Assembly: GCA_963793265.1 (NCBI GenBank)
Contig: CAWBZI010000006.1
Span: 960,001-1,024,000 of the forward strand
From: an uncultured cyanobacterium
GTDB taxonomy: Bacteria > Cyanobacteriota > Cyanobacteriia > Phormidesmidales > Phormidesmidaceae
Direction: 5' to 3'
Length of the DNA stretch: 64,000 bases
Below the pieces are notes generated by a model, which saw only the letters and a list, made by a program, of their open reading frames with translations, ran no database searches and was not told the origin of the DNA. Shown here piece by piece: positions 34,410 to 52,776 of the stretch. The translations under genes were made by a program, and so were the position numbers. The stretch's first letter is position 1. Each line of letters begins with the position of its first letter.

Positions 34410-34688
34410 ATGGACAGTTCAACAAATCGAGCTTTACCCGATAGTGACGTTGGGATTTATGAGTGCGAAGTACGCCTCAAATTTCGAATTATAGAGGAAC
34501 AGCTAACGATGACAAATAAAGAACAGTTAGTAGAAACGCTAGTAGACGCATTTGCCTATGGTAGCGATGAGTATTTAGAAGCTTTGGATAGCGATGTCGA
34601 TATTCAGCAGCTTCAGGATGTAGGCGATGCCTCCCCACAGATGCGCAGACAGCTTATTCGCCTGAAGAACTCTAGCCGCTTGGCCTAA
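34410..34688 (+). CDS. Npun_R1517 family protein
   Basis: VGIYECEVRLKFRIIEE...GSDEYLE...ASPQMRRQLIRL matches my recollection of this family. Confidence 0.8.
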   Translation: MDSSTNRALPDSDVGIYECEVRLKFRIIEEQLTMTNKEQLVETLVDAFAYGSDEYLEALDSDVDIQQLQDVGDASPQMRRQLIRLKNSSRLA

Positions 34689-35971: not shown

Positions 35972-37666
35972 GTGGCAATGGTTAAAGCTTCAGCGAATGC
36001 TCATTCCAGCGTTATCGGAACGGTCAAAGGCCCTGGCGAGAATGGGAACCAGTATCTTTTTATTACGGCTGATAACCGCCATGTGAAAATCGGCGAGTTT
36101 GTATATTACGAGGTGTCTGCGCCGGACGGGAATCAGCTACTGCAAATTTTGGGCAAAATTTCAGACCGGCGGTTGAGCGACCACCTGCCCGATCGCATTT
36201 TTGCTGATACCGAGATCAGCCCAGAGGCGATCGCTGCCCTGGTCGGATTTTCTCATCCTAGCCCCGAAATCTACGAAGTCACCGTCGATGTCATCGGCTA
36301 CTTCAACCCAGCTTTAGGATTTATCAACCCTCGCCTCACGCCCAATCCAGGCGCAAAGGTGTCAATTGTTGACGATGAAACGCTGCTACAGGTTGTGAAT
36401 AAAAAGCAGCCCGGTGAAGTGGGCTCAGCGAACGTGGGCTCGCTGCTGCTGAGGCCGAGCGGCGCGGTGCAAGTGGCGCTAGACGTAAAAGAGCTAGTGA
36501 GTACACACATGGCGATTTTAGCGGGCACAGGCTCCGGTAAGAGCTATACCGCTGGTGTGTTGATTGAGGAATTTTTGCAGCCCTATAATCGAGCTGCCGT
36601 GCTGATTTTTGATCCGCATGGAGAGTATGGGACGCTCGCTGAAATGAGAGGACATCCCAAGTTTCAGGGGGATGACGGCTACGCCCCTGACGTAAGAATT
36701 TTGACGCCGGATGATATTACGATTCGGATTTCGTCGCTGGACTACCATGACGTGCTGACGCTGCTGCCGGAGATGAGCGATCGCCAGCAGTCAATTCTCA
36801 ATAAAGCCTTCAGAATTTTGCACCGTCACAAGCGCGGCGAATACCGTTGGAATGTAGATGACTTAATTGCAGCGGTCAATGAAGCTGACACCGCCGAAGA
36901 TGACGAAGGTAATCTGAAAATTGGATCTTCTGCCCCAGCGATTTCTTGGAAGCTAGAGCGATTCGCTAACTCGCCTTACTTTCACCAAACCCATCACCTC
37001 GCGCCGAAAGATCTATTCATGCCAGGCCGAGTGACGGTGCTGCAAATGAATGAAATTAGCCAGGAAGAGCAGCAGGTTATCTGTGCAGCGGTGCTAAGGC
37101 AAAGCTACCTGGCGCGCATCAATACCGAGAAAGACAAAATTACTGAAGGCGATGAGAACTACTTGCCTTACCCGGTTTTCACGCTCGTAGAAGAAGCTCA
37201 TCGATTCGCACCTGCTAAAGAGCCTTCTCGATGTAAGGCCATTTTGCGAACGATCTTAAGTGAGGGGCGAAAGTTTGGTTTGGGTGTAGGGCTAATTACG
37301 CAGCGGCCCGGAAAGCTTGATTCAGACGTGCTCAGCCAGTGTATGAGCCAGTTTCTGATGCGGATTGTTAATCCGGTAGATCAGGAAAGCTTGAAGTATG
37401 GCGTGGAGGCGGCTGGGCGAGATTTGCTAAAAGAGCTGCCAGCGCTGACGAAAGGGCAGGTAATTATTTCGGGGGCCTGTGTGAATACGCCAGTGCTATG
37501 TCAGGTTCGGCAGCGGCTGACGAAGCACGGTGGTGAGACGCTGAATGCACCGACAGAATGGCAAAAGCACTTTCAAAGCCATCGGGTGCGATCACAAGAA
37601 ATTGAGCGAGCGCCCATAGCTGCCAAGTCCGTTGCCAAAACCTTCCAAGGCGTCAGCATCGAATAA
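35972..37666 (+). CDS. HerA-type ATPase (HAS barrel + DUF87)
   Basis: HMAILAGTGSGKS (Walker A), IFDPHGEY, LVEEAH (Walker B), EGRKFG, TQRP motifs. Confidence 0.9.
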   Translation: MAMVKASANAHSSVIGTVKGPGENGNQYLFITADNRHVKIGEFVYYEVSAPDGNQLLQILGKISDRRLSDHLPDRIFADTEISPEAIAALVGFSHPSPEIYEVTVDVIGYFNPALGFINPRLTPNPGAKVSIVDDETLLQVVNKKQPGEVGSANVGSLLLRPSGAVQVALDVKELVSTHMAILAGTGSGKSYTAGVLIEEFLQPYNRAAVLIFDPHGEYGTLAEMRGHPKFQGDDGYAPDVRILTPDDITIRISSLDYHDVLTLLPEMSDRQQSILNKAFRILHRHKRGEYRWNVDDLIAAVNEADTAEDDEGNLKIGSSAPAISWKLERFANSPYFHQTHHLAPKDLFMPGRVTVLQMNEISQEEQQVICAAVLRQSYLARINTEKDKITEGDENYLPYPVFTLVEEAHRFAPAKEPSRCKAILRTILSEGRKFGLGVGLITQRPGKLDSDVLSQCMSQFLMRIVNPVDQESLKYGVEAAGRDLLKELPALTKGQVIISGACVNTPVLCQVRQRLTKHGGETLNAPTEWQKHFQSHRVRSQEIERAPIAAKSVAKTFQGVSIE

Positions 37667-37709
37667 GTTCACCGGTAGTTCACTGGTAGTTCACTGGTAG
37701 TTCGCTGGC
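37666..37709 (+). repeat. 11 bp tandem repeat (AGTTCACTGGT) x4
   Basis: AGTTCACCGGT, AGTTCACTGGT, AGTTCACTGGT, AGTTCGCTGGC between convergent genes. Confidence 0.85.
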
Positions 37710-37724
37710 CGCTGAAAGCTAGCT

Positions 37725-38768
37725 CTATTCCGTCTGCGGTTCAGTTTGGGGTTGAGCCTGAGGCTGATCTTGCAGGGCAGCCGCTTCTTGAAGTGCGGAT
37801 TTGCTGTTGGCCTGGTAGGTAGTGATGCGGTCTTGAGCTATTGCATACTGCTCGCTACCCACTGGAATGTTACTCATTAAATCAGACGCTTTTTGCCATC
37901 TGGCGGCTAAGTCCAACCATTCAGCAGCAGTCGTCACCGTTTGCCCATCAACAGCAGCCTTTTCAGCCACCCGGACGGCTTCAGAAAAAGCATCCGACAC
38001 ATCACCAGAATTACTGCTATCTGGGGGCGTTGGACTGGTATTAGCACTCGCGGGTGGGGGCGTCGTTTGATTGGATTGGCTAGCAGGCGGCGTTGCTGGC
38101 GCACTTGGCGTTGGAGGCGTTGTATCGGCCGAGCGATCGCCGTCTGAGCCAGGCGAATCTGGGGTAGGCGCGTCTGAGCTAGGCGCAATTTCAGTTGAAG
38201 TTATCGTCGGATCAGACGGCTGAACTGGATTGATGTCTTCTCTGAACACCCAGAGCACGGCCAGCAAGAGTGCCGCTAAACTCGCACCGCCAATGAGCTT
38301 GCTAGAGAAGCTGGTTTTAGAAGGCTCAGGTTCTGTGATGTCTTTAAATATGGGGCCAGCGGGCTTTAGATCGCGATCACGAATCCAACGCTGTACAAAG
38401 AAAGGACGCTTGAGCGTAATCACCTCATCCCATAGCAAATTATTTTCAGGGTCGCGGTTGATTTCTTCTAGCCAAAGCAACTGCTCTTCCTTGACGATAC
38501 GGCTGTTGATTTTGACTTTTTTGATGCGCTGCGGGCTGATGGCTTCTAGCTCGCTACGAACGCGATTGACGACCTTTTCCTTCTCAAGCTGCTCAGCCGT
38601 AGCTGCCTCACACAAAAGCTGAAGCATTCCATCAGAAACCACCGCGCGGGTGCGGATACCAATATCAGCTAAGCGCTGATTAAGCACTTGAATAATTGCG
38701 GCTACGCTACCTTGCCGGGCCTGACCAAATGCCTCGGTCGCGGGGTTAACTGTGCTAGCTTCTTTCAT
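37725..38768 (-). CDS. Hypothetical single-pass membrane protein
   Basis: N-terminal domain, one TM (LIGGASLAALLLAVLWVF), Pro/Ser/Thr linker, helical C-terminal domain. Confidence 0.75.
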   Translation of the reverse strand: MKEASTVNPATEAFGQARQGSVAAIIQVLNQRLADIGIRTRAVVSDGMLQLLCEAATAEQLEKEKVVNRVRSELEAISPQRIKKVKINSRIVKEEQLLWLEEINRDPENNLLWDEVITLKRPFFVQRWIRDRDLKPAGPIFKDITEPEPSKTSFSSKLIGGASLAALLLAVLWVFREDINPVQPSDPTITSTEIAPSSDAPTPDSPGSDGDRSADTTPPTPSAPATPPASQSNQTTPPPASANTSPTPPDSSNSGDVSDAFSEAVRVAEKAAVDGQTVTTAAEWLDLAARWQKASDLMSNIPVGSEQYAIAQDRITTYQANSKSALQEAAALQDQPQAQPQTEPQTE

Positions 38769-38862
38769 TTAGCTAATGCCCGATCCAAACGTATACGAGA
38801 ATACCTGACATTGGGGCCTATCGTCTTCTTCGGCTGTCCTTTAAGTATCGCAGACCGATCAA

Positions 38863-39573
38863 CTATTGCGGGTCAAGATGCGCGCAGTCGTTGAAGCGAC
38901 GAAGAACCCAAAATTCAGGATTGAAGCGATCGCCCCCAAGCTGCTGCCACTGATTATGATCTTGCGTGCTCGCTAGCCAAAACTCAAACAGGGCAGTGTG
39001 CGGTATGCGAATCTGCCAGGTGCGATCGCAGCCCATCATCACCGATACCAACTGCTGTAAAAACCCCTCGTGAGAAACGGCCCACACCACATCGCCTAGC
39101 TGGTGCTGCTTTAAGACATGTCTGACCCACGATCTAGCTCTGGCTCTAGCTGCGACCAAAGATTCAGCTTGCGGGATAGGCTGCCACGCTAAAGAAGACA
39201 TAAGCTGCGCGCAGATATCGGGATAATTCGCCTGCGCCTGCGACCAAGTTAGCCCCTGAAAGATACCTTGATGAAGCTCTTGTAAAGCTTCAGTCTGCTT
39301 AAGGTGACAACTGTGGCGACCGCCCTCATCATCTCGATCTACTTGATTAAGCTCTACTTGATCTAGTAAAGACTGGGCGGTCTGCGTCGCTCTTAGCAAT
39401 GGACTGCTATAGCAATGTGTCGGCAAACCCTGCTGGCTCAAATATTTACCTAGTCGCGCTGCTTGAGCATAGCCTTCAGTAGACAGCTCAGTAGAACTTT
39501 GACCTTCCATAACACCTTGAACATTGCCGATAGACTGGGCGTGACGGATGAGTAAGATTTTAAGATAGGCCAT
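38863..39573 (-). CDS. Histidine phosphatase (phosphoglycerate mutase) family protein
   Basis: LIRHAQS, SSPLLRA, VSHEG motifs; the ATG at 39573 is preferred. Confidence 0.9.
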   Translation of the reverse strand: MAYLKILLIRHAQSIGNVQGVMEGQSSTELSTEGYAQAARLGKYLSQQGLPTHCYSSPLLRATQTAQSLLDQVELNQVDRDDEGGRHSCHLKQTEALQELHQGIFQGLTWSQAQANYPDICAQLMSSLAWQPIPQAESLVAARARARSWVRHVLKQHQLGDVVWAVSHEGFLQQLVSVMMGCDRTWQIRIPHTALFEFWLASTQDHNQWQQLGGDRFNPEFWVLRRFNDCAHLDPQ

Positions 39574-39637
39574 GGGAAGGACATTGTAACGAAGGGGCAG
39601 CGATCGCAATAACGCACTCGCAGGCTAAACGTTTACA

Positions 39638-40012
39638 ATGACAGCAGCTCAACTATCCACCAAGCCTATGCTGCTAAAATCCACTACCCGCCACGTTTTA
39701 ATCTACGCGGCGACCATTGAAAACAACGAAATCGTGCCGAGCGAAAACCAGCTCACCTTAGATGTTGATCCAGAAAACGAGTTTACCTGGAGCGATGAAG
39801 CGCTGCAAAAGGTGTACCGAGAGTTTGACCGCTTGGTAGACGATTATGACTCAGAGGCCCTAACAGACTATAATTTGCGACGTATTGGCTCTGATCTAGA
39901 GCATTTTGTCCGTGCCCTGCTACAGTCGGGAGATATTAGCTACAACCTGGAGAGCCGTGTGCTGAACTACAGCATGGGTCTACCGCGCGTTGTTGAAGGG
40001 GCATCTTCTTAG
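39638..40012 (+). CDS. ndhM: NAD(P)H-quinone oxidoreductase subunit M
   Basis: MLLKSTTRH, LDVDPENEF, YNLRRIGSDLE, NYSMGLP motifs. Confidence 0.95.
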   Translation: MTAAQLSTKPMLLKSTTRHVLIYAATIENNEIVPSENQLTLDVDPENEFTWSDEALQKVYREFDRLVDDYDSEALTDYNLRRIGSDLEHFVRALLQSGDISYNLESRVLNYSMGLPRVVEGASS

Positions 40013-40061: not shown

Positions 40062-42557
40062 GTGATTAACTGCCCCAATCCCAGTTGCAAAGCGGCCAAT
40101 CCTGAAGGCAACGATACCTGTCAGGTTTGTCAGTCGGCAATCCCCCATCGCTACCTATGGGGGGTGGGAAATCTGGTGGCAACGCTCGAGCCTGGTGCAC
40201 TGCTTAATCAGCGCTATTTACTGAAGCGCGATCGCACCTTTCTAGATACTCAGCCCGGATTAGTTCCCGAATCTCTCATAGAGATGCCTGAGTTTTTACT
40301 TCCCTATCTACACCTATCAGCCTATCCATTGCATATGCCGCGTCCGTATGCGGTGATACAAACGCCTGAGAGAGACTACGTGCTGCTGCTAGAGTCCAGC
40401 GCCTTAGCCACAGCAGTGAATGGCGACGAGGTGCCCGCTCAGCTCCCCCAACTTTCAGCTCGTTGGGCCGATGCGCCGCCGCTACGGCAGCTAAGCTGGC
40501 TGTGGCAAATTGCGTATTTATGGGACGCCTTTCAAGCCGAGCAGGCTGCTTCGACACTTCTAGAGAATTCCTTACTGCGCGTAGACGGATCGATATTGCG
40601 ACTGGGTGAGCTGTCATCACCATCTACTGGCGAGCAAGCAGTGCGGGCAATCACTCAGGTAACCGCTAAGCAGCCGACGCTGCTCGATCTAAGCCGTAGC
40701 TGGCAACCGCTCGTGGGAAGCGCGCATCAAGCAATAAGAGTATTTTTAGACCGGGTATGTGAGCAGCTAGACCGGCGACAGATGAACGCTGAACAGCTTA
40801 CAGAGCTTCTGAGCCAGGCAATTTCGATGTGTGCTCAGGGGCAGTCAGTCAGCTACGACTTGGCCGTTTATACTGACCAGGGGCCGACTCGAAAGCGAAA
40901 TGAAGACGCCTGCTATCCCGCCAGCGGCACTGCTCAAACGTTGACAAGCGAGCAAACCAAAACGAACTCTCAGCTACTCATCGTGTGCGATGGTATTGGC
41001 GGACATCAAGGGGGGGACGTGGCATCTAAGCTGGCGATCGCTACCATAGAATCCAGGCTGCAACCGCTGCTATCGGCTGATTCGCTTGAGCTAACCGCTA
41101 CTGAAATAACGCTGGCTATCGAAGCGGCGATTTGCGCAGCTAATGATGAAATTTCGGCTCAGAACGATCAGGCGCAGCGGCAGGCGCGCGATCGCATGGG
41201 CACGACGCTGGTGCTGGCATTAGTTAAGGGTGCGGACGTATACATTGGGCATTTGGGAGATAGCCGGGCCTACCGGATAAGTCAGCGCAACTGTCAGCAG
41301 GTCACTTTAGACGATGATGTCGCCTGTCGGCAGGTCAGGCTCGGTGGCGGTCTATATCGTGAAGTGCTCACGCATCCTGGCTCAGGGTCGTTAATCCAAG
41401 CGCTGGGGATGAGTTCTTCGCAAACGTTGAGGCCGACGGTGCAGCGGTTTGTGCTGGACGAAAACTGTGTGTTTTTGCTGTGTTCGGATGGGTTGAGTGA
41501 TAGCGATCGCGTCGAACAGTTTTGGCAGCAGGTGCTGCGACCTCTCGTCTTAGAAGACAGAACAATCGGGCAATCAACAGCAGAAGTCGGTCAGCGCCTT
41601 GTGAACCTGGCAAATAAATACAACGGTCACGATAATGTCACAGTTGGCCTGCTAACGGCACAAGTTATTAGAGCGTCGGAGCGACGAGTGCCAAGAGATT
41701 TATCAAGTTTGAGCGCGGGTGATACAGTTGCCCCTAGCCGAGCAGCTAGAGGGGCCACCAGGATAGTGAGCCTGCCGCAAGTTGACACTACGGTGAATAG
41801 GTCAACTTCTCAGCCCTCTGCAGATGAAGTGCCCGGCGAGAGCGCAGGTGGCTTAACAACCAGTACATCGGCCTCGACTAGCCTGGGCAAACCCGCCACA
41901 AAGACTTCAGAGTCGTCTGGTAAAAGAGATATTAAAAAGATAGGCGCTGTTGTTGCCCTGCTAGCGGCTTTAGCAGGCGGGCTGTACTTCCTATTTCCGG
42001 GGCTGACCTATCGGTTTACGGCTGATTCGAGAGAAGAGGGCAGTTCCTCTACGGCAGTGACAGCACCCGCAGAACCTTTGGAAGCGACTGAAAATGGGGG
42101 CGTGGGACGACCGCCTGCCGATATTCAATTAGGCGCTTACCTCCGCGTACTACCTAACCTATCGAACCGCACAGAGGCAAACGGTCAGTACGAACCGCTC
42201 AGGCTCTATCCCAATCCCCAAATCGACGACAAGGAGCTGGCCGTTACGATGCCATCTGGCAGCATCGCGCAAGTCGTTGAGCAGGCAACAGAAGGAAATA
42301 CGCAGTGGGTGCGACTCACACTATGTTCTATTCCTTCAGGCGCGTCGCTGGCTGACGTTCCTGCTGAGACAGACGCGCTGCCGCTAGACCAAGAAAGCTC
42401 GCCTACAGGTCTGAGCGATCCAGAAGCACTCAGTGCCGATCAGCCCCTTCCTTTGGATGCAGGGAAAAAGGCTTGGGCTGTGAAATCGTCAATTGCCAGT
42501 GCCTCGGAAAATATTAAAGATTTGCAGCCCACCCAGCGCGGAAGCTGTGGAAGCTGA
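40062..42557 (+). CDS. PP2C Ser/Thr phosphatase with N-terminal 4-Cys zinc ribbon and degenerate kinase-like region, one TM and a C-terminal extracytoplasmic domain
   Basis: CPNPSC...CQVC; RKRNEDA, CDGIGGH, GTT, GDSR, CSDGL, GHDNVT; TM IGAVVALLAALAGGLYFLF. Confidence 0.9.
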   Translation: MINCPNPSCKAANPEGNDTCQVCQSAIPHRYLWGVGNLVATLEPGALLNQRYLLKRDRTFLDTQPGLVPESLIEMPEFLLPYLHLSAYPLHMPRPYAVIQTPERDYVLLLESSALATAVNGDEVPAQLPQLSARWADAPPLRQLSWLWQIAYLWDAFQAEQAASTLLENSLLRVDGSILRLGELSSPSTGEQAVRAITQVTAKQPTLLDLSRSWQPLVGSAHQAIRVFLDRVCEQLDRRQMNAEQLTELLSQAISMCAQGQSVSYDLAVYTDQGPTRKRNEDACYPASGTAQTLTSEQTKTNSQLLIVCDGIGGHQGGDVASKLAIATIESRLQPLLSADSLELTATEITLAIEAAICAANDEISAQNDQAQRQARDRMGTTLVLALVKGADVYIGHLGDSRAYRISQRNCQQVTLDDDVACRQVRLGGGLYREVLTHPGSGSLIQALGMSSSQTLRPTVQRFVLDENCVFLLCSDGLSDSDRVEQFWQQVLRPLVLEDRTIGQSTAEVGQRLVNLANKYNGHDNVTVGLLTAQVIRASERRVPRDLSSLSAGDTVAPSRAARGATRIVSLPQVDTTVNRSTSQPSADEVPGESAGGLTTSTSASTSLGKPATKTSESSGKRDIKKIGAVVALLAALAGGLYFLFPGLTYRFTADSREEGSSSTAVTAPAEPLEATENGGVGRPPADIQLGAYLRVLPNLSNRTEANGQYEPLRLYPNPQIDDKELAVTMPSGSIAQVVEQATEGNTQWVRLTLCSIPSGASLADVPAETDALPLDQESSPTGLSDPEALSADQPLPLDAGKKAWAVKSSIASASENIKDLQPTQRGSCGS

Positions 42558-42569
42558 GAGGAGTGCTGC

Positions 42570-44219
42570 GTGATGTCTGAAAAGGATTCTCTGTGCCTGT
42601 GGCTGGCAATCGATAGGCTGCAAATGCAGCGCGATCACTTTGCGATGTGGATAGTGCGCGCCCCCCATCCGGGCGGGCATGTTCATTACGATCGAGAGTG
42701 GAGCCCGGAGCTAGCGCAGGCGTGGCAAAGCTGGCAGTCTATTTTTTCGCTGCGCGGACTGCCGCAGGTGCCGCATATTCCCTCAGCTTACGTGCCCCAG
42801 TTTGTGCTCGAAGACGTGGCTGAGATGCCAGATGATCCTGTCACCGGGCAGCCTGCAAGCTATAGCAGCCGGTATATGCAGCATTTGGGTGTGAGCTTAT
42901 GGCAGTGGCTATTTGAGGGGCCAATTGAGAGTAGTTTTGAGCGATCGCAGGGTATTGCCATCGGCCAAAACCAACCGCTGCGGCTGCGGCTAGACATTCG
43001 AGATCCTGAGCTGATTGCGCTGCCCTGGGAGATTATGCAGCCGCAGCCAGGTAGCCGGGCGCTGTCTTTGAACCGCAAAATTTTGCTGAGCCGCACCAGC
43101 AACACAGTCGATCCGTTGGAGATAACGGGGCTAGACAATGCGCTGAAGATTTTGCTGGTTATCGGAGAAGATAGTCCAGGGCAAGACGCCCAGCAGGATG
43201 AAGCAGATACTAATGGCGATGACGATGTAATGCTACGGCTCAGTGAGGAGGCCGTACTGCTCAAAAAAATCCTAGAGCAAAGCAGCGATTTGAGTATGCG
43301 ACCTACGGCTAGACGAACCGTAGACGTGCTGCTTCAGCCGAGCGCTGCCGAATTGAGCCGTGTGTTAGAGAAAGGCAGCTATAACGTCTTCTTTTATTCG
43401 GGGCACGGCGTACCAGGGCCAGACGGCGGGCTGTTGTTTTTATCTGATGCTGCCTTAAGTGGCACAGAGTTAGCTCAGGTGCTTGTGCGCGCGAAGGTGA
43501 AGCTGGCCGTATTTAACACCTGCTGGGGCGCGCAGCCGGAGCAAAGTCAGCAGCAGGCGCTTCCTCGTAGCAGCCTGGCAGAGGTGCTGCTATATCACGG
43601 GCTACCGGCGGTGGTGGCAATGCGTGACTCAATAGCTGATGAAGAGGCGATTAGCTTTATTCAGGTGTTTGCCCAAACGCTGGCAGAGCGGAAGCCGGTG
43701 GATGAGGCAGTTGCGATCGCCCGCCAACATCTCCTCACCCTCTACCACTTCAACCAGCCTGCCTGGACGCTGCCTGTGCTGTACATGCACCCGGACTACA
43801 GCGGCACCATTTTACTGAACGAAGAAACCACGCAAATTAACGAACACAGCGACTTTCGCCCCAGGCGGCAGCAGGCCATGTTGCGAGATGCCACTGATAT
43901 TCGCCAAATGTGGCCTATCTACAGCGACGTGATGAGAATTGGCCGCAAACCCGACGACAATGACCTAGTGATTTCTGATCCGTGGGTGTCGAGCAGCCAT
44001 GCCGAAATCTTTCACAGGCGCATCACGGCGCAGAGTCCGGGAGATGGTCTAGAAACCGCTTATTTTTTGCGGGATAATTCTCGATACGGCACGTTTTACC
44101 TCCAAGGCAACGACTGGCGAGAAGTTCACCGTCAGGAGATTACGCTACATTCAGGTACACAAATTCGCTTTGGCAGTAAGTCGGACGGGCGACTGCTAGA
44201 GTTTGTAGTAGAAAACTAG
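42570..44219 (+). CDS. CHAT (caspase-like) protease with C-terminal FHA domain
   Basis: LRLRL...LPWE, catalytic FYSGHG and VFNTCW, VVAMR; FHA motifs IGR...VSSSHA...DNSRYGT. GAGGAG ribosome-binding site; 12 bp after the PP2C gene. Confidence 0.88.
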   Translation: MMSEKDSLCLWLAIDRLQMQRDHFAMWIVRAPHPGGHVHYDREWSPELAQAWQSWQSIFSLRGLPQVPHIPSAYVPQFVLEDVAEMPDDPVTGQPASYSSRYMQHLGVSLWQWLFEGPIESSFERSQGIAIGQNQPLRLRLDIRDPELIALPWEIMQPQPGSRALSLNRKILLSRTSNTVDPLEITGLDNALKILLVIGEDSPGQDAQQDEADTNGDDDVMLRLSEEAVLLKKILEQSSDLSMRPTARRTVDVLLQPSAAELSRVLEKGSYNVFFYSGHGVPGPDGGLLFLSDAALSGTELAQVLVRAKVKLAVFNTCWGAQPEQSQQQALPRSSLAEVLLYHGLPAVVAMRDSIADEEAISFIQVFAQTLAERKPVDEAVAIARQHLLTLYHFNQPAWTLPVLYMHPDYSGTILLNEETTQINEHSDFRPRRQQAMLRDATDIRQMWPIYSDVMRIGRKPDDNDLVISDPWVSSSHAEIFHRRITAQSPGDGLETAYFLRDNSRYGTFYLQGNDWREVHRQEITLHSGTQIRFGSKSDGRLLEFVVEN

Positions 44220-44346
44220 GTAATAACACTGAACTTTGCCTCAAATGAAGGAAAATTGTTTAGCTTTGCGGAACGGTTGAACGCGCCTCTGTATCCCTTT
44301 TCTGTCACACTTTATAATTTCTGCTAGCACAGATAAACGCACCGCT

Positions 44347-44958
44347 ATGGCTAATCAATCATTCAGCTCTGAGGATAAAGACAGCAAAAACAATGGCCTG
44401 CCTGCGGCTCAAGCTGAGCTGTTGCAGGCTGTTTTAGAAACTGAGGGCTACCCCTGGCTAGCAGATGAAACATCGGTGACATATTCAAAGGAGATAGAAA
44501 ACGCTGGGCTTGCGTTAGAAATTTCTGAAGATGAAGCGGCTCAAGGTTGGCAAGGACTCTCTACACAGCTCAATCAAATGTGGGGTGATCGCACTGCTGA
44601 GGACTCTCTGACAGATCAGCTCGTCGTGAAGTTCGCTGAAAGCCTGCCGAGCGAAGTAATCACGCGCATCGGTGAGAATGCTCAGCGGATCGCCAGTGAG
44701 GCCAAGTCGTCGGGCCAAAGCATGTTGGATCAGATGGTTGCTTGTGTGCAGGATGTAATGACGCAGATGGCCGATGATGACCTGCGCGTGATGGGTAGAC
44801 CGATGGCGATGGCGATGCGCGGCAATAGTGCAGATGAGTTTGTGACGGCAACGATTCAGTCGATACGCACGGCTGAGTGGGAGGCGCTATCACCGATTGA
44901 GCAAGCGCGGCTAAGTTTAGCAGCAGCGCGATATGCCCTTTCACAGGTCGAAGGCTAA
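44347..44958 (+). CDS. Hypothetical protein, PatU3-like by motif resemblance
   Basis: 203 aa ORF with YPW, LPSEVI, AMAMRG and terminal EQARLSLAAARYAL. The ORF is solid; the PatU3 resemblance is from memory only. Confidence 0.7.
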   Translation: MANQSFSSEDKDSKNNGLPAAQAELLQAVLETEGYPWLADETSVTYSKEIENAGLALEISEDEAAQGWQGLSTQLNQMWGDRTAEDSLTDQLVVKFAESLPSEVITRIGENAQRIASEAKSSGQSMLDQMVACVQDVMTQMADDDLRVMGRPMAMAMRGNSADEFVTATIQSIRTAEWEALSPIEQARLSLAAARYALSQVEG

Positions 44959-50249: not shown

Positions 50250-50507
50250 CTAGCGAACCTCTAGCCTATTAAGGCAGCGCATCAAGTTTTCTAAGGTCGC
50301 TGGGTACGAGAGGCTTTCACTCAACAACTGAATTTGATCTTCGCTTAATGATTGAACTTGCCTGTGAACGTCAGCAGGTAAGGTTCCGATACTCTTAGTC
50401 AACATACCTAGCATTAGTCTTGCAGCACCTTCCTGGCGACCTTCCTGGCGACCTTCCTGGCGACCTATTTCAATGCCTTCTTGCGTCCAGCTCGTGATGA
50501 TTTCCAC
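50250..50507 (-). CDS. Putative nested in-frame small protein (Rpn C-terminal antitoxin, 85 aa)
   Basis: AGGGAGG (50519-50513) lies 5 nt upstream of an in-frame GTG at 50507, just before the GRQE repeats. Confidence 0.55.
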   Translation of the reverse strand: MEIITSWTQEGIEIGRQEGRQEGRQEGAARLMLGMLTKSIGTLPADVHRQVQSLSEDQIQLLSESLSYPATLENLMRCLNRLEVR

Positions 50508-51194
50508 TGCCGCCTCCCTTGTTTCTTGAGTTTCTATTTGAGCTATCTCAATATTAAACGCTGTTTTCTCTTCGGGCGTAAGCTGCAAGTAAGTATCAAC
50601 AAAGCCAGAGATTAGCTGCACTCTAGCAGGATCTAACTTTAGTGTTACAAGCAAACGTAGGCACTCGGCTTTCACCTTAGGTCGATCTTTTACATTGATG
50701 TTCATTTTGGCCATAAGCGCTGAGGCTACAGGGTTCTGCTTCGTCAGAAAGTCACGCCAATTTAGCTGATTGAGCTGAATAACCCGGTAGTTAAAGCTTA
50801 AGACAGAGAAATCGGGAAAGTCGATTTTGAACTGGTTAGGCGCAGGCAGCTTTGGTTTGTCGTAGGAAAAGATCACGATGGGGTAAACCGGATAGTGATG
50901 TTTTTCGTAAAGGCGGGCGAAGTAGCGGAACATGCGCTGGCCAAAAGCAGCTTTTGAGGAGGACTGATTCTCAATGTGGATAAGGAAGAATGAAGGATTC
51001 CCGCGAAACTGAACTTGAGCGAGTAAATCGGTTTCATACTTGTCGCCTACGGTGACATCGGTAAAGATTTCTTTATCTAAAAACGTGATTGACCCAGGCT
51101 CAAGATAGCTGACAACTTCTGGTAGAAACAGCTCTAGAAATTCTACGAAGAAAGTAGAGAGCAGTTCTTTGAACAATCGGTCATGGTCAATCAT
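50250..51194 (-). CDS. Rpn family PD-(D/E)XK nuclease / putative transposase with DUF4351-like C-terminus
   Basis: DHDRLFKELL, TDLLA...IHIENQ, RMFRYF, GRQE repeats. Confidence 0.88.
   Translation of the reverse strand: MIDHDRLFKELLSTFFVEFLELFLPEVVSYLEPGSITFLDKEIFTDVTVGDKYETDLLAQVQFRGNPSFFLIHIENQSSSKAAFGQRMFRYFARLYEKHHYPVYPIVIFSYDKPKLPAPNQFKIDFPDFSVLSFNYRVIQLNQLNWRDFLTKQNPVASALMAKMNINVKDRPKVKAECLRLLVTLKLDPARVQLISGFVDTYLQLTPEEKTAFNIEIAQIETQETREAAVEIITSWTQEGIEIGRQEGRQEGRQEGAARLMLGMLTKSIGTLPADVHRQVQSLSEDQIQLLSESLSYPATLENLMRCLNRLEVR
50427..50466 (-). repeat. 12 bp coding tandem repeat (GRQE)x3
   Basis: ACCTTCCTGGCG three times, perfect. Confidence 0.9.
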
Positions 51195-51222
51195 TTTTAA
51201 TCGATGGGTTCTCTATTTCTTT

Positions 51223-52776
51223 TCAATCCCAAAATTCTTGAGCAAAGTTGACTAGCCAGTCTTTGACTCGGTAGGTGGCCTGACAGTCGTCTTCGTTGTA
51301 GCGGAGGATGGTGTTGAGATAGGTGCGATCGCCCGTCCTCAACCAGTCGTCATACCAGCAAATCGACTGCGCCCCGTTCGCGTCTTCATCACGCCACTCA
51401 AACCCCATCCACCGAGCCAAATGCTTCAGCGCATAGCTCTCTACCGGCAGCGCCACCGCATCCACAACGCGCTTATGAATGTCTACAAAGCGATCTAGCA
51501 AAACCTCTATATCGACACTGCCATTGCCGTACAGCTCAGCGAGTCTACGAACTGTTTGAGCTTCATAAGGGCAAAAGTGATAGATCGGAGCGTCTGGGTA
51601 GCTATCGACCAGTGCTAAAAACTCAAACCAGGCTGTTTCTTCAGCGTCAGGTGATTCTGCGACTAGGGCGTGGAAGGTTTCTTCTTTAGTTTCGTTGTTG
51701 ACGACTAAAACGCCGTGAAGATAGATCAGATCTTTGTCTGGGGCCGCTTCGATATCGAAGTAAAGTTCAATATCCGTGGTTGGAACTTGCTGTGGGGTGA
51801 GTAGGAACTTGCCGTTGTGAAGACGTGCGATCGCCTCTCCTGTCCACTGCGCCTGCGCCTGAAAGATCATCTTCTCCGTCACTGGCTGTTCCACATCTAG
51901 CTCATTGGCTAAATGAGTTGGCTGAGCCTGCGCCAACGCCTCAACGGTCGTTAGACCCATGGATACCAGCGTGGGATAGCGCGTTTTAGTCACGCCCGGT
52001 AATAGTGAAAGGTGACTTTGTTCTTTGGCAACCTGATAGCAATGGCTCAGCCAAGGGCACATATCGCAGCGGCTACGAGAGATAAACACCTCTGGCGACT
52101 CAGGTTGCCTCATCATGCCGTCTCGAACATCTAAGCAGTCGTCTAAAGCCTCTTGAAGCTTAGGAACGTAACGCTCCAGATTAACGGCATACTCTCGTTC
52201 TTTCAAAAGCAGCCCGGCCATATCAGGCCATACGCCCTGTGTTTCTGCCAGCACGTAAGCGCCAAAAGCCGAAACAAGCTGATACTCGGGCTTTGGCTTT
52301 TTGCCCATTTTGACGTTGTAAGGCACGTAGTACCAATCGCCCAGCCAAGACTCACCTTTACACTTCACCAGCACATCGGGCTCAGTGCGGTACAAAACAT
52401 CCCCCGGCCCCTGTGCGATCAGTACGCCACGATGGATAGACGCTACGCCTTCAGCCATCATCCTATAGGTCGCTTTAGCACCCGCTTCCCAATCGTATCG
52501 GTCAAAGACAGGACGCTCTAAAGGCTCAAACTGAGTCAGCATGGCGGCTCGATGATCAGCGCTATCTTCGCGGAGCTTTACAAAATAATCGCTGGGCGGA
52601 TCTTTCAGAGCAGCATCCCCATAGCTGTCAAGATATACGCGACGACGACAGCGATGGTAGTTAAAAAGCATGTGGTCGGTAAACCACGCTGGGCCAGATT
52701 CATTATCGTGGTGAAACTGCGGCAGACTGCCTTCGAGCTGCAAATTATCGCGCTGCGCAGTTGACAAACTGACCAA
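51223..52776 (-). CDS. TM0106 family RecB-like nuclease with C-terminal RNase H-like domain
   Basis: RCRRR, EPDVLVK, CDMCPW...C, YFDIE, ESYALK, YNEDDC motifs. Confidence 0.88.
   Translation of the reverse strand: MVSLSTAQRDNLQLEGSLPQFHHDNESGPAWFTDHMLFNYHRCRRRVYLDSYGDAALKDPPSDYFVKLREDSADHRAAMLTQFEPLERPVFDRYDWEAGAKATYRMMAEGVASIHRGVLIAQGPGDVLYRTEPDVLVKCKGESWLGDWYYVPYNVKMGKKPKPEYQLVSAFGAYVLAETQGVWPDMAGLLLKEREYAVNLERYVPKLQEALDDCLDVRDGMMRQPESPEVFISRSRCDMCPWLSHCYQVAKEQSHLSLLPGVTKTRYPTLVSMGLTTVEALAQAQPTHLANELDVEQPVTEKMIFQAQAQWTGEAIARLHNGKFLLTPQQVPTTDIELYFDIEAAPDKDLIYLHGVLVVNNETKEETFHALVAESPDAEETAWFEFLALVDSYPDAPIYHFCPYEAQTVRRLAELYGNGSVDIEVLLDRFVDIHKRVVDAVALPVESYALKHLARWMGFEWRDEDANGAQSICWYDDWLRTGDRTYLNTILRYNEDDCQATYRVKDWLVNFAQEFWD

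Follow-up and report, generated by a model that had tools for sequence, protein, structure and literature searches.

What could a phosphatase, a protease, and a small protein encoded side by side in a cyanobacterium do together? We addressed this question for three genes in a window of 64,000 nucleotides (the whole stretch of DNA that was analyzed) from an uncultured member of the Phormidesmidaceae. The initial annotation had read them as a phosphorylation-gated proteolytic system, and the open reading frame coordinates bear out its description of three co-oriented genes. Gene 1 (positions 40062 to 42557; 831 aa) encodes a PrpJ1-type membrane PP2C phosphatase, gene 2 (42570 to 44219; 549 aa) a CHAT-FHA protease that is predicted to be soluble, and gene 3 (44347 to 44958; 203 aa) a predicted all-helical paralogue of PatU/PatU3. 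All three lie on the plus strand, with gaps of 12 bp between genes 1 and 2 and 127 bp between genes 2 and 3. The same order (PP2C, CHAT, hypothetical protein) is found in Anabaena as prpJ1(all1731)-all1730-all1729, as judged from gene order and annotation; All1730 and All1729 are the counterparts of genes 2 and 3. The ndhM gene (39638 to 40012, plus strand; Pfam NdhM, E = 8e-52) ends 49 bp before gene 1 and recurs 5' of many homologous loci, and we do not put it forward as a member of the circuit. A promoter and terminator scan of the locus gave matches at chance level. DIF1-like matches with one mismatch were seen 5' of genes 1 and 3 (n = 2); they were scored without a control and are not used as evidence.

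The grouping of these genes exceeds chance. Of 82 genomes with both gene 2 and gene 3, 64 have the two side by side and the other 18 have them unlinked, and all three genes stand together in 39 of 74 scorable loci. The expectation that the genes co-occur across genomes thus holds for genes 2 and 3, and the link to gene 1 is looser: genes 1 and 2 adjoin in 42 of 77 loci, spread over 11 families, and are unlinked in 35, with no adjacency in the 14 loci of family f3.

The obvious point of comparison is the HetF (Alr3546)-PatU3 (Alr0101)-sigma-HetZ (Alr0099)/HetZ' (Alr0202) system of Anabaena sp. PCC 7120 (PMC9457339; PMC13342950), which recent work has made central to heterocyst patterning and to the link between patterning and cell division. 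Our overall reading, which we regard as probable, is that genes 2 and 3 encode a cognate pair of protease and substrate, a sister of HetF/PatU, in which the gene 3 product may restrain a HetZ-type sigma factor. Such a sister circuit would give all1730, all1729, and all4254 of the model strain a testable role.

The CHAT-FHA protease and its HetF relatives

The gene 2 product matches CHAT (PF12770; E = 2.3e-18, 67.1 bits versus a cutoff of 24) and carries an FHA domain at residues 456 to 535 (43935 to 44174; Pfam E = 9.8e-12), delimited by the profile match and the alignment. Bacterial CHAT proteases have, to our knowledge, few known natural substrates. The intact His/Cys dyad reported initially, His279 (43404 to 43406) and Cys318 (43521 to 43523), is kept in all 79 aligned homologues. 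Asp357 (43638 to 43640) is present in 74 of 79 and common to all six HetF sequences shown, and it is a candidate for the base of an Arg-selecting S1 pocket. Eukaryotic separase selects a P1 Arg by Asp2151 (PMC9729208); the equivalence of Asp357 to this residue is suggested by spacing and not by alignment. The CHAT part had no sequence match among solved chains at an E value of 0.01, and the FHA domain matched the solved chains of OdhI and EmbR.

Hydropathy along gene 2 peaks at 1.38, and no transmembrane segment was found. Sequence comparison indicates that gene 2 encodes a soluble clan CD CHAT cysteine protease fused to FHA and forming a sister family of HetF. When six further CHAT proteins from this genome were placed in a tree, the gene 2 family came out as the sister of HetF (support 100/100), subject to a warning of long branches. 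Gene 2 scored 172 bits against the HetF profile NF045509 (cutoff, 1200), under which the genome's own hetF, separately encoded at G000:C6:845832-848312, also falls (538 bits). Like HetF, the protease has the CHAT dyad and the shared Asp after the Cys; unlike HetF, it is predicted to be soluble and has FHA in place of the transmembrane and periplasmic TPR part. PatU3 accumulates when hetF is deleted (PMC9457339), so a protease of the All1730 type does not stand in for HetF.

Gene 3, its likeness to PatU, and the predicted cut

No Pfam or NCBIfam family matched gene 3 above cutoff, and the ESM Atlas returned only unnamed cyanobacterial clusters. Pairwise BLAST against PatU was not significant (E = 0.29), nor was the comparison of the gene 3 family with a single PatU sequence (7.8%). 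Family against family, HHalign gave 86% in local mode (E = 5e-6), 89% in global mode (E = 2.4e-7), and 80% with other alignments. The score of 44.8 compares with 15.7 for the reversed sequence, and none of 40 block shuffles exceeded 22.9. A PatU profile search of this genome ranked gene 3 second of 13,777 open reading frames (E = 0.083); the reverse genome-wide search ranked fifth (E = 1.3). Because the likeness is visible only from profile to profile, the suggested similarity of gene 3 to PatU3 holds as a remote homology. The structure models of gene 3 and PatU agree in helix order; the gene 3 model is all helix, and that of PatU has C-terminal beta-sandwich strands (283 to 378). A Foldseek search with gene 3 returned nothing at an E value of 0.001, and the best fold match (Z = 6.4, rmsd 7.6, 109 residues aligned) is no proof of a new fold. 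The C-terminal domain of PatU had no Pfam match as DUF1822 in 27 members. In all 30 PatU loci, hetZ precedes patU; gene 3 instead follows the protease gene, which marks it as a paralogue of PatU and not a member of that family. Gene 3 is most likely a distant paralogue of PatU/PatU3 that corresponds to their helical core, and unlike PatU3 it has no C-terminal beta domain.

HetF cuts PatU3 at R117|S118 (PMC9457339), a numbering we checked on sequence L137. In register with Arg117 stands Arg158 of gene 3 (44818 to 44820), the predicted P1 residue. Its column holds Arg in 101 of 103 gene 3 homologues, and the aligned PatU residue is Arg in 30 of 30. A homologous helical partner with its scissile Arg in register is thus a further likeness to the HetF system. 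The predicted complex of genes 2 and 3 scored 0.75, compared with 0.00 for the best of three controls; 116 of 157 solved pairs attained the score mark, as did 2 of 215 mismatched ones, figures that apply only approximately to the alignments used here. The runs agreed in at least 81% of contacts, with a partner pLDDT of at least 67. The interface is predicted to join protease residues 277 to 279, 316 to 318, and 354 to 360, which include His279, Cys318, and Asp357, to residues 155 to 160 of gene 3, placing the Arg158 stretch on the catalytic dyad. No solved structure resembled either chain part in sequence.

Could the three genes merely be an old syntenic block that has no common mechanism, with the PatU likeness arising by chance between helical proteins? 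The weak pairwise and reverse-profile scores would suit this, as would the conservation of ndhM and other unrelated genes as neighbors. The shuffle controls, the register of the Arg, the co-occurrence that persists in the 18 genomes where the genes are unlinked, and the complex controls at 0.00 all argue the other way, and we consider this explanation very improbable.

A parallel HetF/PatU3-like pair, as the initial annotation had proposed, is accordingly the reading that profile homology, the conserved Arg, the shared distribution, and the complex model point to, and none of the computational findings it had named as counting against its proposal turned up. In this pair, the CHAT domain of gene 2 would grip gene 3 by its helical core and cut after Arg158. 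We think that such a cut probably takes place. The complex model is compatible both with a substrate and with a bound inhibitor. A gene 3 product acting as a stable, securin-like inhibitor or adaptor, uncut or slowly cut while the true substrate is another protein, would fit that model as well. Arg158 ends a helix in the gene 3 monomer model, and two homologues (L026 and L095), both unlinked from gene 2, have Leu at its position. The genome of the first (G172) still has gene 2 with an intact dyad. Moreover, genome G011, in which gene 2 is deleted, retains gene 3 along with gene 1 and the sigma factor paralogue described below. Yet the Arg is in register with the proven cleavage residue of PatU3 and is present in every one of the 63 gene 3 copies taken from gene 2 loci, all adjoining gene 2, and a pseudosubstrate would be expected to lose it. 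The inhibitor or adaptor role is therefore unlikely in our estimation.

Co-occurrence with a HetZ paralogue

Among 301 genomes, gene 2 was found in 83, gene 3 in 83, and HetZ-related protein 2 (the All4254 type) in 84, the last being exactly the union of the genomes with gene 2 or gene 3. One genome in 270 contigs (G204) has gene 2 and HetZ-related protein 2, and gene 3 was not found there even by alignment. HetZ/HetZ' (72 genomes) instead tracks PatU (71), and the same split in distribution separates HetZ, HetZ', PatU, and HetF from the set of gene 2, gene 3, and HetZ-related protein 2. Unlike the HetF system, this set is kept in genomes that are without PatU, HetZ, and intact HetF (13 of the 84), a persistence that bears on the ancestral function of the circuit.

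In the present genome, HetZ-related protein 2 is encoded away from genes 1 to 3 (G000:C6:356817-358013), and separate true hetF, patU, and hetZ genes are present as well. The initial annotation had overlooked HetZ-related protein 2, a putative HetZ-type sigma factor from a distant site and the likely output of the circuit. HHalign aligned HetZ-related protein 2 to HetZ over the sigma regions (99.6%, E = 5e-25, 249 columns), with no alignment of its N-terminal 120 residues, and sigma70_r4_2 exceeded its cutoff in two of six members. By these matches, it appears to be a HetZ paralogue related to the sigma-HetZ subgroup of ECF sigma factors and a putative sigma factor itself. In two genomes (G144 and G278), it is fused to TPR proteins and not to gene 3. 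We rejected three other candidates, the MshEN-T2SSE neighbor of the paralogue, Npun_R1517, and a 347-aa neighbor, whose distributions do not follow the set.

In analogy to the restraint of sigma-HetZ by PatU3, intact gene 3 would restrain HetZ-related protein 2, and cleavage would free the sigma factor. Paralogy and co-occurrence suggest this anti-sigma role, to which we give close to an even chance. One could instead accept the protease-substrate pair and place its output elsewhere, in the divisome or another partner, with HetZ-related protein 2 merely sharing the same lineages. PatU3 itself has a second, division-related target, Ftn6/ZipS (PMC9457339; PMC12288457). The paralogue gene never adjoins genes 2 and 3 in the loci read (23 to 56 kb away in six genomes) and stands directly behind hetZ-patU in genome G038; in the HetF system, the substrate gene does adjoin the sigma factor gene and not the protease gene, the reverse of what is seen here. 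In a panel of discordant genomes, counted by hand, HetZ-related protein 2 agreed with the set in 31 of 31, compared with 16 to 18 of 31 for five other families, a comparison among related and therefore not independent genomes with only four families plus PrpJ as controls. This agreement, together with the identical split that sets HetZ, HetZ', PatU, and HetF apart, makes an output other than the paralogue a minority possibility in our view, though a less remote one than the inhibitor.

A related arrangement is known from Craspase, in which the TPR-CHAT protease Csx29 cuts Csx30, which binds RpoE (PMC9729208). A clan CD CHAT protease cutting a sigma-binding partner is what we propose by analogy for genes 2 and 3, whose locus, unlike that of Craspase, is without a CRISPR context. 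New here is the co-occurrence of HetZ-related protein 2 with genes 2 and 3, and the pair itself is most likely an uncharacterized twin of the HetF switch.

The phosphatase and a possible phosphothreonine control

What would control a protease that has no membrane anchor? What HetF draws from its transmembrane and TPR part is here probably provided by the FHA domain. The phosphothreonine (pThr)-binding residues of this domain are well kept in the family (Gly458 and Ser474 in 79 of 79, Arg459 in 75, His477 in 76). FHA domains usually carry a conserved Asn before Gly-Thr, and in refinement of the earlier description, this residue is replaced in the gene 2 family (Tyr in 64, Phe in 11, and Asn in 2 of 79; Tyr506 here). 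The linker between CHAT and FHA is variable except for Thr421 (43830 to 43832), kept in 78 of 79 and, by this conservation, a candidate phosphosite. The FHA domain might read this Thr or, in PrpJ-type phosphatases, the Thr motif next to the membrane; some Hanks kinase would write the mark, and gene 1 would erase it. Gene 3 was rejected as the FHA ligand, as no Thr column reached 60% in 63 rows. Membrane PP2C and FHA proteins form signaling pairs in mycobacteria (PstP/FhaA/FhaB), and GarA/OdhI use an intramolecular pThr-FHA switch. The locus resembles these in its membrane PP2C beside an FHA protein and its conserved linker Thr next to FHA, and it differs from them in having no kinase, an FHA fused to a protease, and the replaced Asn. 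We infer some pThr control of gene 2, a view that we hold tentatively and that falls somewhat short of even.

Gene 1 matches PP2C_2 (PF13672; E = 6.5e-15, 55.7 bits versus a cutoff of 24) and lies below the cutoff of the NCBIfam phosphatase PRK14559 (244 versus 374 bits). The layout comprises a Cys4 zinc ribbon (Cys4, 9, 20, and 23; 40071 to 40130), each Cys being present in 42 of 43 and weak Pfam DZR matches in 32 of 35 members, a conserved N-terminal domain of unknown function, the PP2C domain (residues ~262 to 535; 40845 to 41666; delimited by Pfam and NCBIfam profiles and the alignment), a linker, one transmembrane helix, and a variable outer domain. As described initially, the phosphatase has all its metal-binding residues (Asp282, Asp310, Asp400, Asp476, and Asp524, each in 43 of 43) and a membrane anchor, the single helix predicted after the PP2C domain at residues 627 to 645 (41940 to 41996; hydropathy 2.32 over 19 residues), preceded by basic residues and present in 43 of 43 homologues. 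Residues 30 to 260 had no kinase match in the PDB or Pfam; HHalign against 16 kinases of this genome gave 61% with the first 42 residues and 2% without them, below the best shuffle.

From the predicted topology, the C-terminal part with its Cys pair (41997 to 42554) is probably extracytoplasmic, and the initial annotation had called gene 1 a receptor: its outer domain would detect a signal and thereby determine the pThr state, on which the switching of the protease would depend. The adjacency of genes 1 and 2 (here 12 bp apart), the juxtamembrane Thr-x-x-[ILVM] in 34 of 43 orthologues, the Cys pair, an SH3b-like lead in the outer part (Atlas score 0.87, under the tool's mark of 0.9), and a PrpJ-type protein in all 84 genomes that have gene 2 or 3 would agree with it. 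The receptor label is poorly supported across orthologues: the outer domain is the least conserved region, its tail varies from 23 to 243 aa, and in 8 of 43 it is shorter than 60 aa and without Cys. The family is also wider than the pair (113 versus 83 of 301 genomes), 29 of the 113 having neither gene 2 nor gene 3, and the loci without linkage noted above and the lack of a kinase at the locus speak against a receptor. We therefore regard the receptor role as improbable. At the conserved column, gene 1 of this genome does not carry the Thr-x-x-hydrophobic motif, and the genome has a second PrpJ-type gene.

As an eraser of the pThr mark, gene 1 remains a possible candidate, a doubtful one in our judgment. 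All1731 is PrpJ, and we equated gene 1 with PrpJ1 by gene order, annotation, and size rather than direct alignment; like PrpJ1, it is a PP2C with a transmembrane helix and the first gene of the PP2C-CHAT-hypothetical series. PrpJ1 is a membrane PP2C required for heterocyst maturation, and the passages cited here state no connection to All1730 or All1729 (PMC6161253; PMC13056922). The initial annotation, which knew of no characterization of the triad, had overlooked the correspondence of gene 1 to the characterized PrpJ1; our literature search found no study of All1730 or All1729.

In its fullest form, our proposal is that duplication of the whole HetF-PatU-sigma-HetZ module gave rise to a second protease/anti-sigma/sigma circuit, in which pThr, read by FHA and erased by PrpJ1, would license the All1730-type cut of the All1729 type and release the All4254-type sigma factor. 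It is rather unlikely to be correct in full. If true, it would be a caspase-like bacterial protease gated by a phosphothreonine reader, in a circuit kept more widely than the heterocyst circuit, and it would offer a possible route of action for the Fox gene prpJ1. FHA control of a bacterial CHAT protease would be new, as far as we know and by our literature search. As the output of the circuit, cell envelope or polysaccharide remodeling is a guess, in which we place little confidence.

A convergent PrsW gene accompanies gene 2 in 37 of 71 loci and likewise in the Anabaena gene table (alr1728). The FHA-PrsW protein (Alr1728 type) was rejected as an invariable fourth component, since of the panel genomes only 3 of the 14 that have the set and 3 of the 17 that lack it encode this protein; unlike the Anabaena prpJ1 locus, this genome has no match to it. 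The FHA-PrsW protein does carry the conserved FHA Asn.

The three-gene locus and its Anabaena counterpart

The locus consists of three co-oriented genes on the plus strand, gene 1 (positions 40062 to 42557; 831 aa), gene 2 (42570 to 44219; 549 aa), and gene 3 (44347 to 44958; 203 aa), and the open reading frames confirmed the intergenic gaps of 12 bp (genes 1 and 2) and 127 bp (genes 2 and 3) reported in the initial annotation. Gene 1, described there as a membrane PP2C with metal-binding motifs, indeed encodes a Cys4 ribbon and a PP2C domain in which each of the five conserved Asp residues is present, together with a single transmembrane (TM) helix (residues 627 to 645) and a 186-aa tail. Family-model searches assigned no family to gene 3. 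The nearest named relatives are Phormidesmis/Leptolyngbya-type cyanobacteria.

We equate the three genes with the prpJ1-all1730-all1729 block of Anabaena PCC 7120, because gene order, annotation, and size match (a correspondence of these features rather than a direct alignment). A supplementary table lists, in order, all1731 (PP2C, FOX), all1730 (CHAT, unknown), all1729 (hypothetical, unknown), and the convergent alr1728 (PrsW protease, FOX) (PMC13056922); all1731 is prpJ (PMC6161253). The fetched loci repeat this order, preceded by ndhM and followed by an FHA-PrsW gene. all1729 was once counted among filament-associated genes and was later struck off the list because its tree contains unicellular taxa (PMC2821919). 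In the full-text literature covered, outside which most subscription papers fall (Jang et al. 2007 and 2009 among them), no paper treats all1730 or links these genes, and no main-text mention of all1730 was found.

Several neighbors were also recorded. Window positions 35972 to 39609 encode a HerA-type ATPase, a 347-aa membrane protein, and a histidine phosphatase, a block kept upstream of ndhM in close relatives. An Npun_R1517 family protein (fold solved, function unknown) at 34410 to 34688 is also found near the corresponding locus in comparison genome G011, and a Rpn/YhgA-like DUF4351 gene and an RNase_H_2 nuclease gene occupy 50250 to 52776 on the minus strand. In 37/71 loci (e.g., L058:5614-7005), gene 3 is followed by a convergent Fox gene for an FHA-PrsW membrane protease of the Alr1728 type, a second FHA-protease fusion at the gene 2-3 locus in those relatives; it was not found in the window's genome. 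PrsW is a family of anti-sigma-cleaving proteases.

A HetF sister protease and a remote PatU paralogue

Gene 2 is a sister of HetF and not HetF itself. It scored 172 bits on the HetF model against a cut-off of 1200, and a true hetF lies at another place in the window's genome. Whereas HetF has a TM helix and TPRs, gene 2 combines CHAT and FHA domains and lacks a TM helix. A tree of 25 rows placed the gene 2 family with HetF, apart from six other CHAT proteins of the genome (support 100/100, with a long-branch warning); those six (G000:C2, C3, C6, and C7) formed a clade of their own. The intact His/Cys dyad noted earlier in this CHAT-FHA fusion proved invariant: His279 and Cys318 were present in 79/79 rows of an alignment of the window copy with 78 homologues of at least 500 aa (two short rows were left out). 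Asp357 was present in 74/79 rows and is common to the six HetF sequences shown. In separase, Asp2151 selects the P1 Arg (PMC9729208), and Asp357 may be its equivalent, likened by spacing and not by alignment.

Gene 3 is a remote paralogue of PatU rather than a member of that family. The patU of the window's genome lies directly behind hetZ, and hetZ stood in front in all 30 PatU loci. Pairwise BLAST between gene 3 and PatU was not significant (E = 0.29), and the gene 3 family reached 7.8% against a single PatU sequence; compared with the PatU family, it reached an HHalign probability of 86% (local) and 89% (global), or 80% using other alignments. The score of 44.8 compared with 15.7 for the reversed control and at most 22.9 for 40 block shuffles. 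Among 13,777 open reading frames of the genome, the PatU profile ranked gene 3 second (E = 0.083); in the reverse search, PatU was fifth (E = 1.3). HetF cleaves PatU3 between Arg117 and Ser118 (PMC9457339). The Arg in the 325-aa PatU of locus L137, which has a near-identical site, is residue 184, which becomes 117 when counted in a 258-aa frame sharing that end. This Arg was kept in 30/30 PatU sequences, and the aligned Arg158 in 101/103 gene 3 sequences. Predicted models of the two proteins share their helix order, but PatU continues into a C-terminal beta domain of which gene 3 has no counterpart; gene 3 may therefore be PatU3-like in function while standing outside the family. The PatU3 resemblance proposed earlier thus holds for profile-to-profile comparison and the cut-site Arg and fails for pairwise BLAST and the beta domain.

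The initial annotation had also suggested structure prediction of the gene 2-gene 3 pair. With gene 2 residues 1 to 420 and gene 3 residues 15 to 203 as input, each as an alignment, the complex scored 0.75 (best control, 0.00), above a mark met by 116/157 solved pairs and 2/215 mismatched pairs that is only roughly valid here. Runs agreed in at least 81% of contacts, with a partner pLDDT of at least 67. The confident interface comprises protease residues 277 to 279, 316 to 318, and 354 to 360 and gene 3 residues 155 to 160, which would place the Arg singled out by homology at the catalytic dyad. A sequence search of solved chains found none resembling gene 3, PatU, or the CHAT part, which makes it less likely, but still possible, that the complex passed through memorization by the predictor. 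The model supports binding but does not demonstrate cleavage. Taken with the homology and the kept Arg, genes 2 and 3 are probably a protease-substrate pair, the part of the proposed HetF/PatU3-like circuit that stands; the receptor part is weak.

Phospho-control and the receptor question

The FHA domain of gene 2 keeps Gly458, Arg459, Ser474, and His477, with Tyr/Phe replacing the usual Asn. No conserved Thr was found in the gene 3 alignment. Candidate ligands are Thr421 in the CHAT-FHA linker of gene 2 (78/79 rows) and a juxtamembrane Thr-x-x-[ILVM] motif in gene 1 orthologues (34/43), absent at that column in the window copy. The locus holds no kinase gene; a motif scan found 16 kinases in the genome. 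Phosphothreonine control of the protease is conceivable, at somewhat less than even chances. Gene 1 is unlikely to be the signal receptor it had been called, because its outer domain is its least conserved part and measures <60 aa in 8/43 orthologues.

Distribution and a candidate sigma-factor output

We surveyed 301 genomes sampled evenly across the phylum; by summed family tallies, 128 of them belong to the class of the window, and the remaining 173 are uninformative. Gene 3 (single copy) and gene 2 (E 1e-40) each occurred in 83/301 genomes. The neighborhood comparison suggested in the initial annotation came out positive: genes 2 and 3 were neighbors no more than 1 kb apart in 64 of the 82 genomes holding both, and in the 80 of 83 gene 2 loci fetched, gene 1 adjoined in 42/77 scorable loci, gene 3 in 62/76, and the full triad was together in 39/74. 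In family f3, gene 1 adjoined gene 2 in 0/14. Of 478 named loci, the best 80 were read, a sample skewed to close kin; in these, gene 2 preceded gene 3 in 73/77 and gene 1 preceded gene 2 in 51/67 (L046 is a false miss due to start choice). The PrpJ-type N-terminal domain occurred in 113/301 genomes; therefore, the phosphatase family is independent of the gene 2-3 pair.

HetZ belongs to the ECF sigma factors and PatU3 is its probable anti-sigma factor, which likewise inhibits HetZ' (Alr0202) (PMC13342950). The window's genome has three HetZ-family genes. HetZ/HetZ' occurred in 72/301 genomes, tracking PatU (71/301), and the sigma paralogue HetZ-related protein 2 (All4254) in 84/301, the exact union of gene 2 and gene 3 holders. 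Its HHalign comparison with HetZ gave 99.6% across 249 aligned columns. Thirteen genomes from four families carry the set (this paralogue with gene 2, gene 3, or both) but neither PatU nor HetZ. In 12 of these, and also in G290, the gene 2 orthologue was the sole match to the HetF model; in G011, the match was a HetF that has no CHAT core. G220 is the reverse case, with HetF, PatU, and HetZ present and genes 2 and 3 and the sigma paralogue absent. A panel of 31 genomes, of which 14 carry the set and 17 lack it, was picked after the distribution was known and counted by hand. HetZ-related protein 2 agreed with the set in 31/31, compared with 18/31 for Npun_R1517, 17/31 each for FHA-PrsW and the PrpJ type, and 16/31 each for the MshEN protein and the 347-aa neighbor.

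The sigma paralogue is thus the likely output of the pair, an extension beyond the earlier interpretation, and gene 3 has close to an even chance of being an anti-sigma factor, judged from paralogy and co-occurrence. Several points weigh against the sigma link: the counts come from related, nonindependent genomes; five families are a small basis for comparison; gene 2 is missing from G011, and a search of G204 found no gene 3; and G038 has the paralogue behind hetZ-patU. The prediction is sharp and cheap to test in a model organism, and it adjoins a central developmental circuit, but it is a computational one.

Anti-HetZ ChIP peaks lie at the all1730 promoter, with a fold of 1.80 in the wild type and 1.44 in the hetZ mutant, and at the all4254 promoter, where the 1.72 given is for the wild type alone; these peaks are weak and were not found in the other three supplement files (PMC13342950). 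Common neighbors of the sigma paralogue are a bacterial sugar transferase gene and an MshEN plus partial T2SSE gene (L224:2940-4097, L226:2805-4004, L033:247-987), all4254 falls in a sigG mutant (PMC4390870), and a prpJ mutant lacks the major heterocyst glycolipid (PMC6161253); on these grounds, our guess is that the circuit's output is envelope remodeling.

Some loci were unusual. In G011 (L265, G011:C16:54986-58570; L242/L263), gene 2 is deleted between genes 1 and 3 and the HetF-like protein has no CHAT core, a natural loss of both proteases; its gene 3 lacks the invariant Met before the Arg. Six genomes (G089, G017, G083, G170, G104, and G071) have gene 2 and the sigma paralogue on one contig, 23 to 56 kb apart. 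In G041 (L270:2468-5296), a single 943-aa frame runs from hetZ into an unrelated gene, transglutaminase-looking by eye; no patU was found in that genome, though HetF is intact. In G038 (L271, G038:C1:159571-163822), hetZ, patU, and the paralogue stand head to tail in one orientation. G144 and G278 carry second HetZ-related protein 2 copies fused behind TPR-containing proteins (L268:1707-4133 and L269:1663-4167; frames of 809 and 835 aa).
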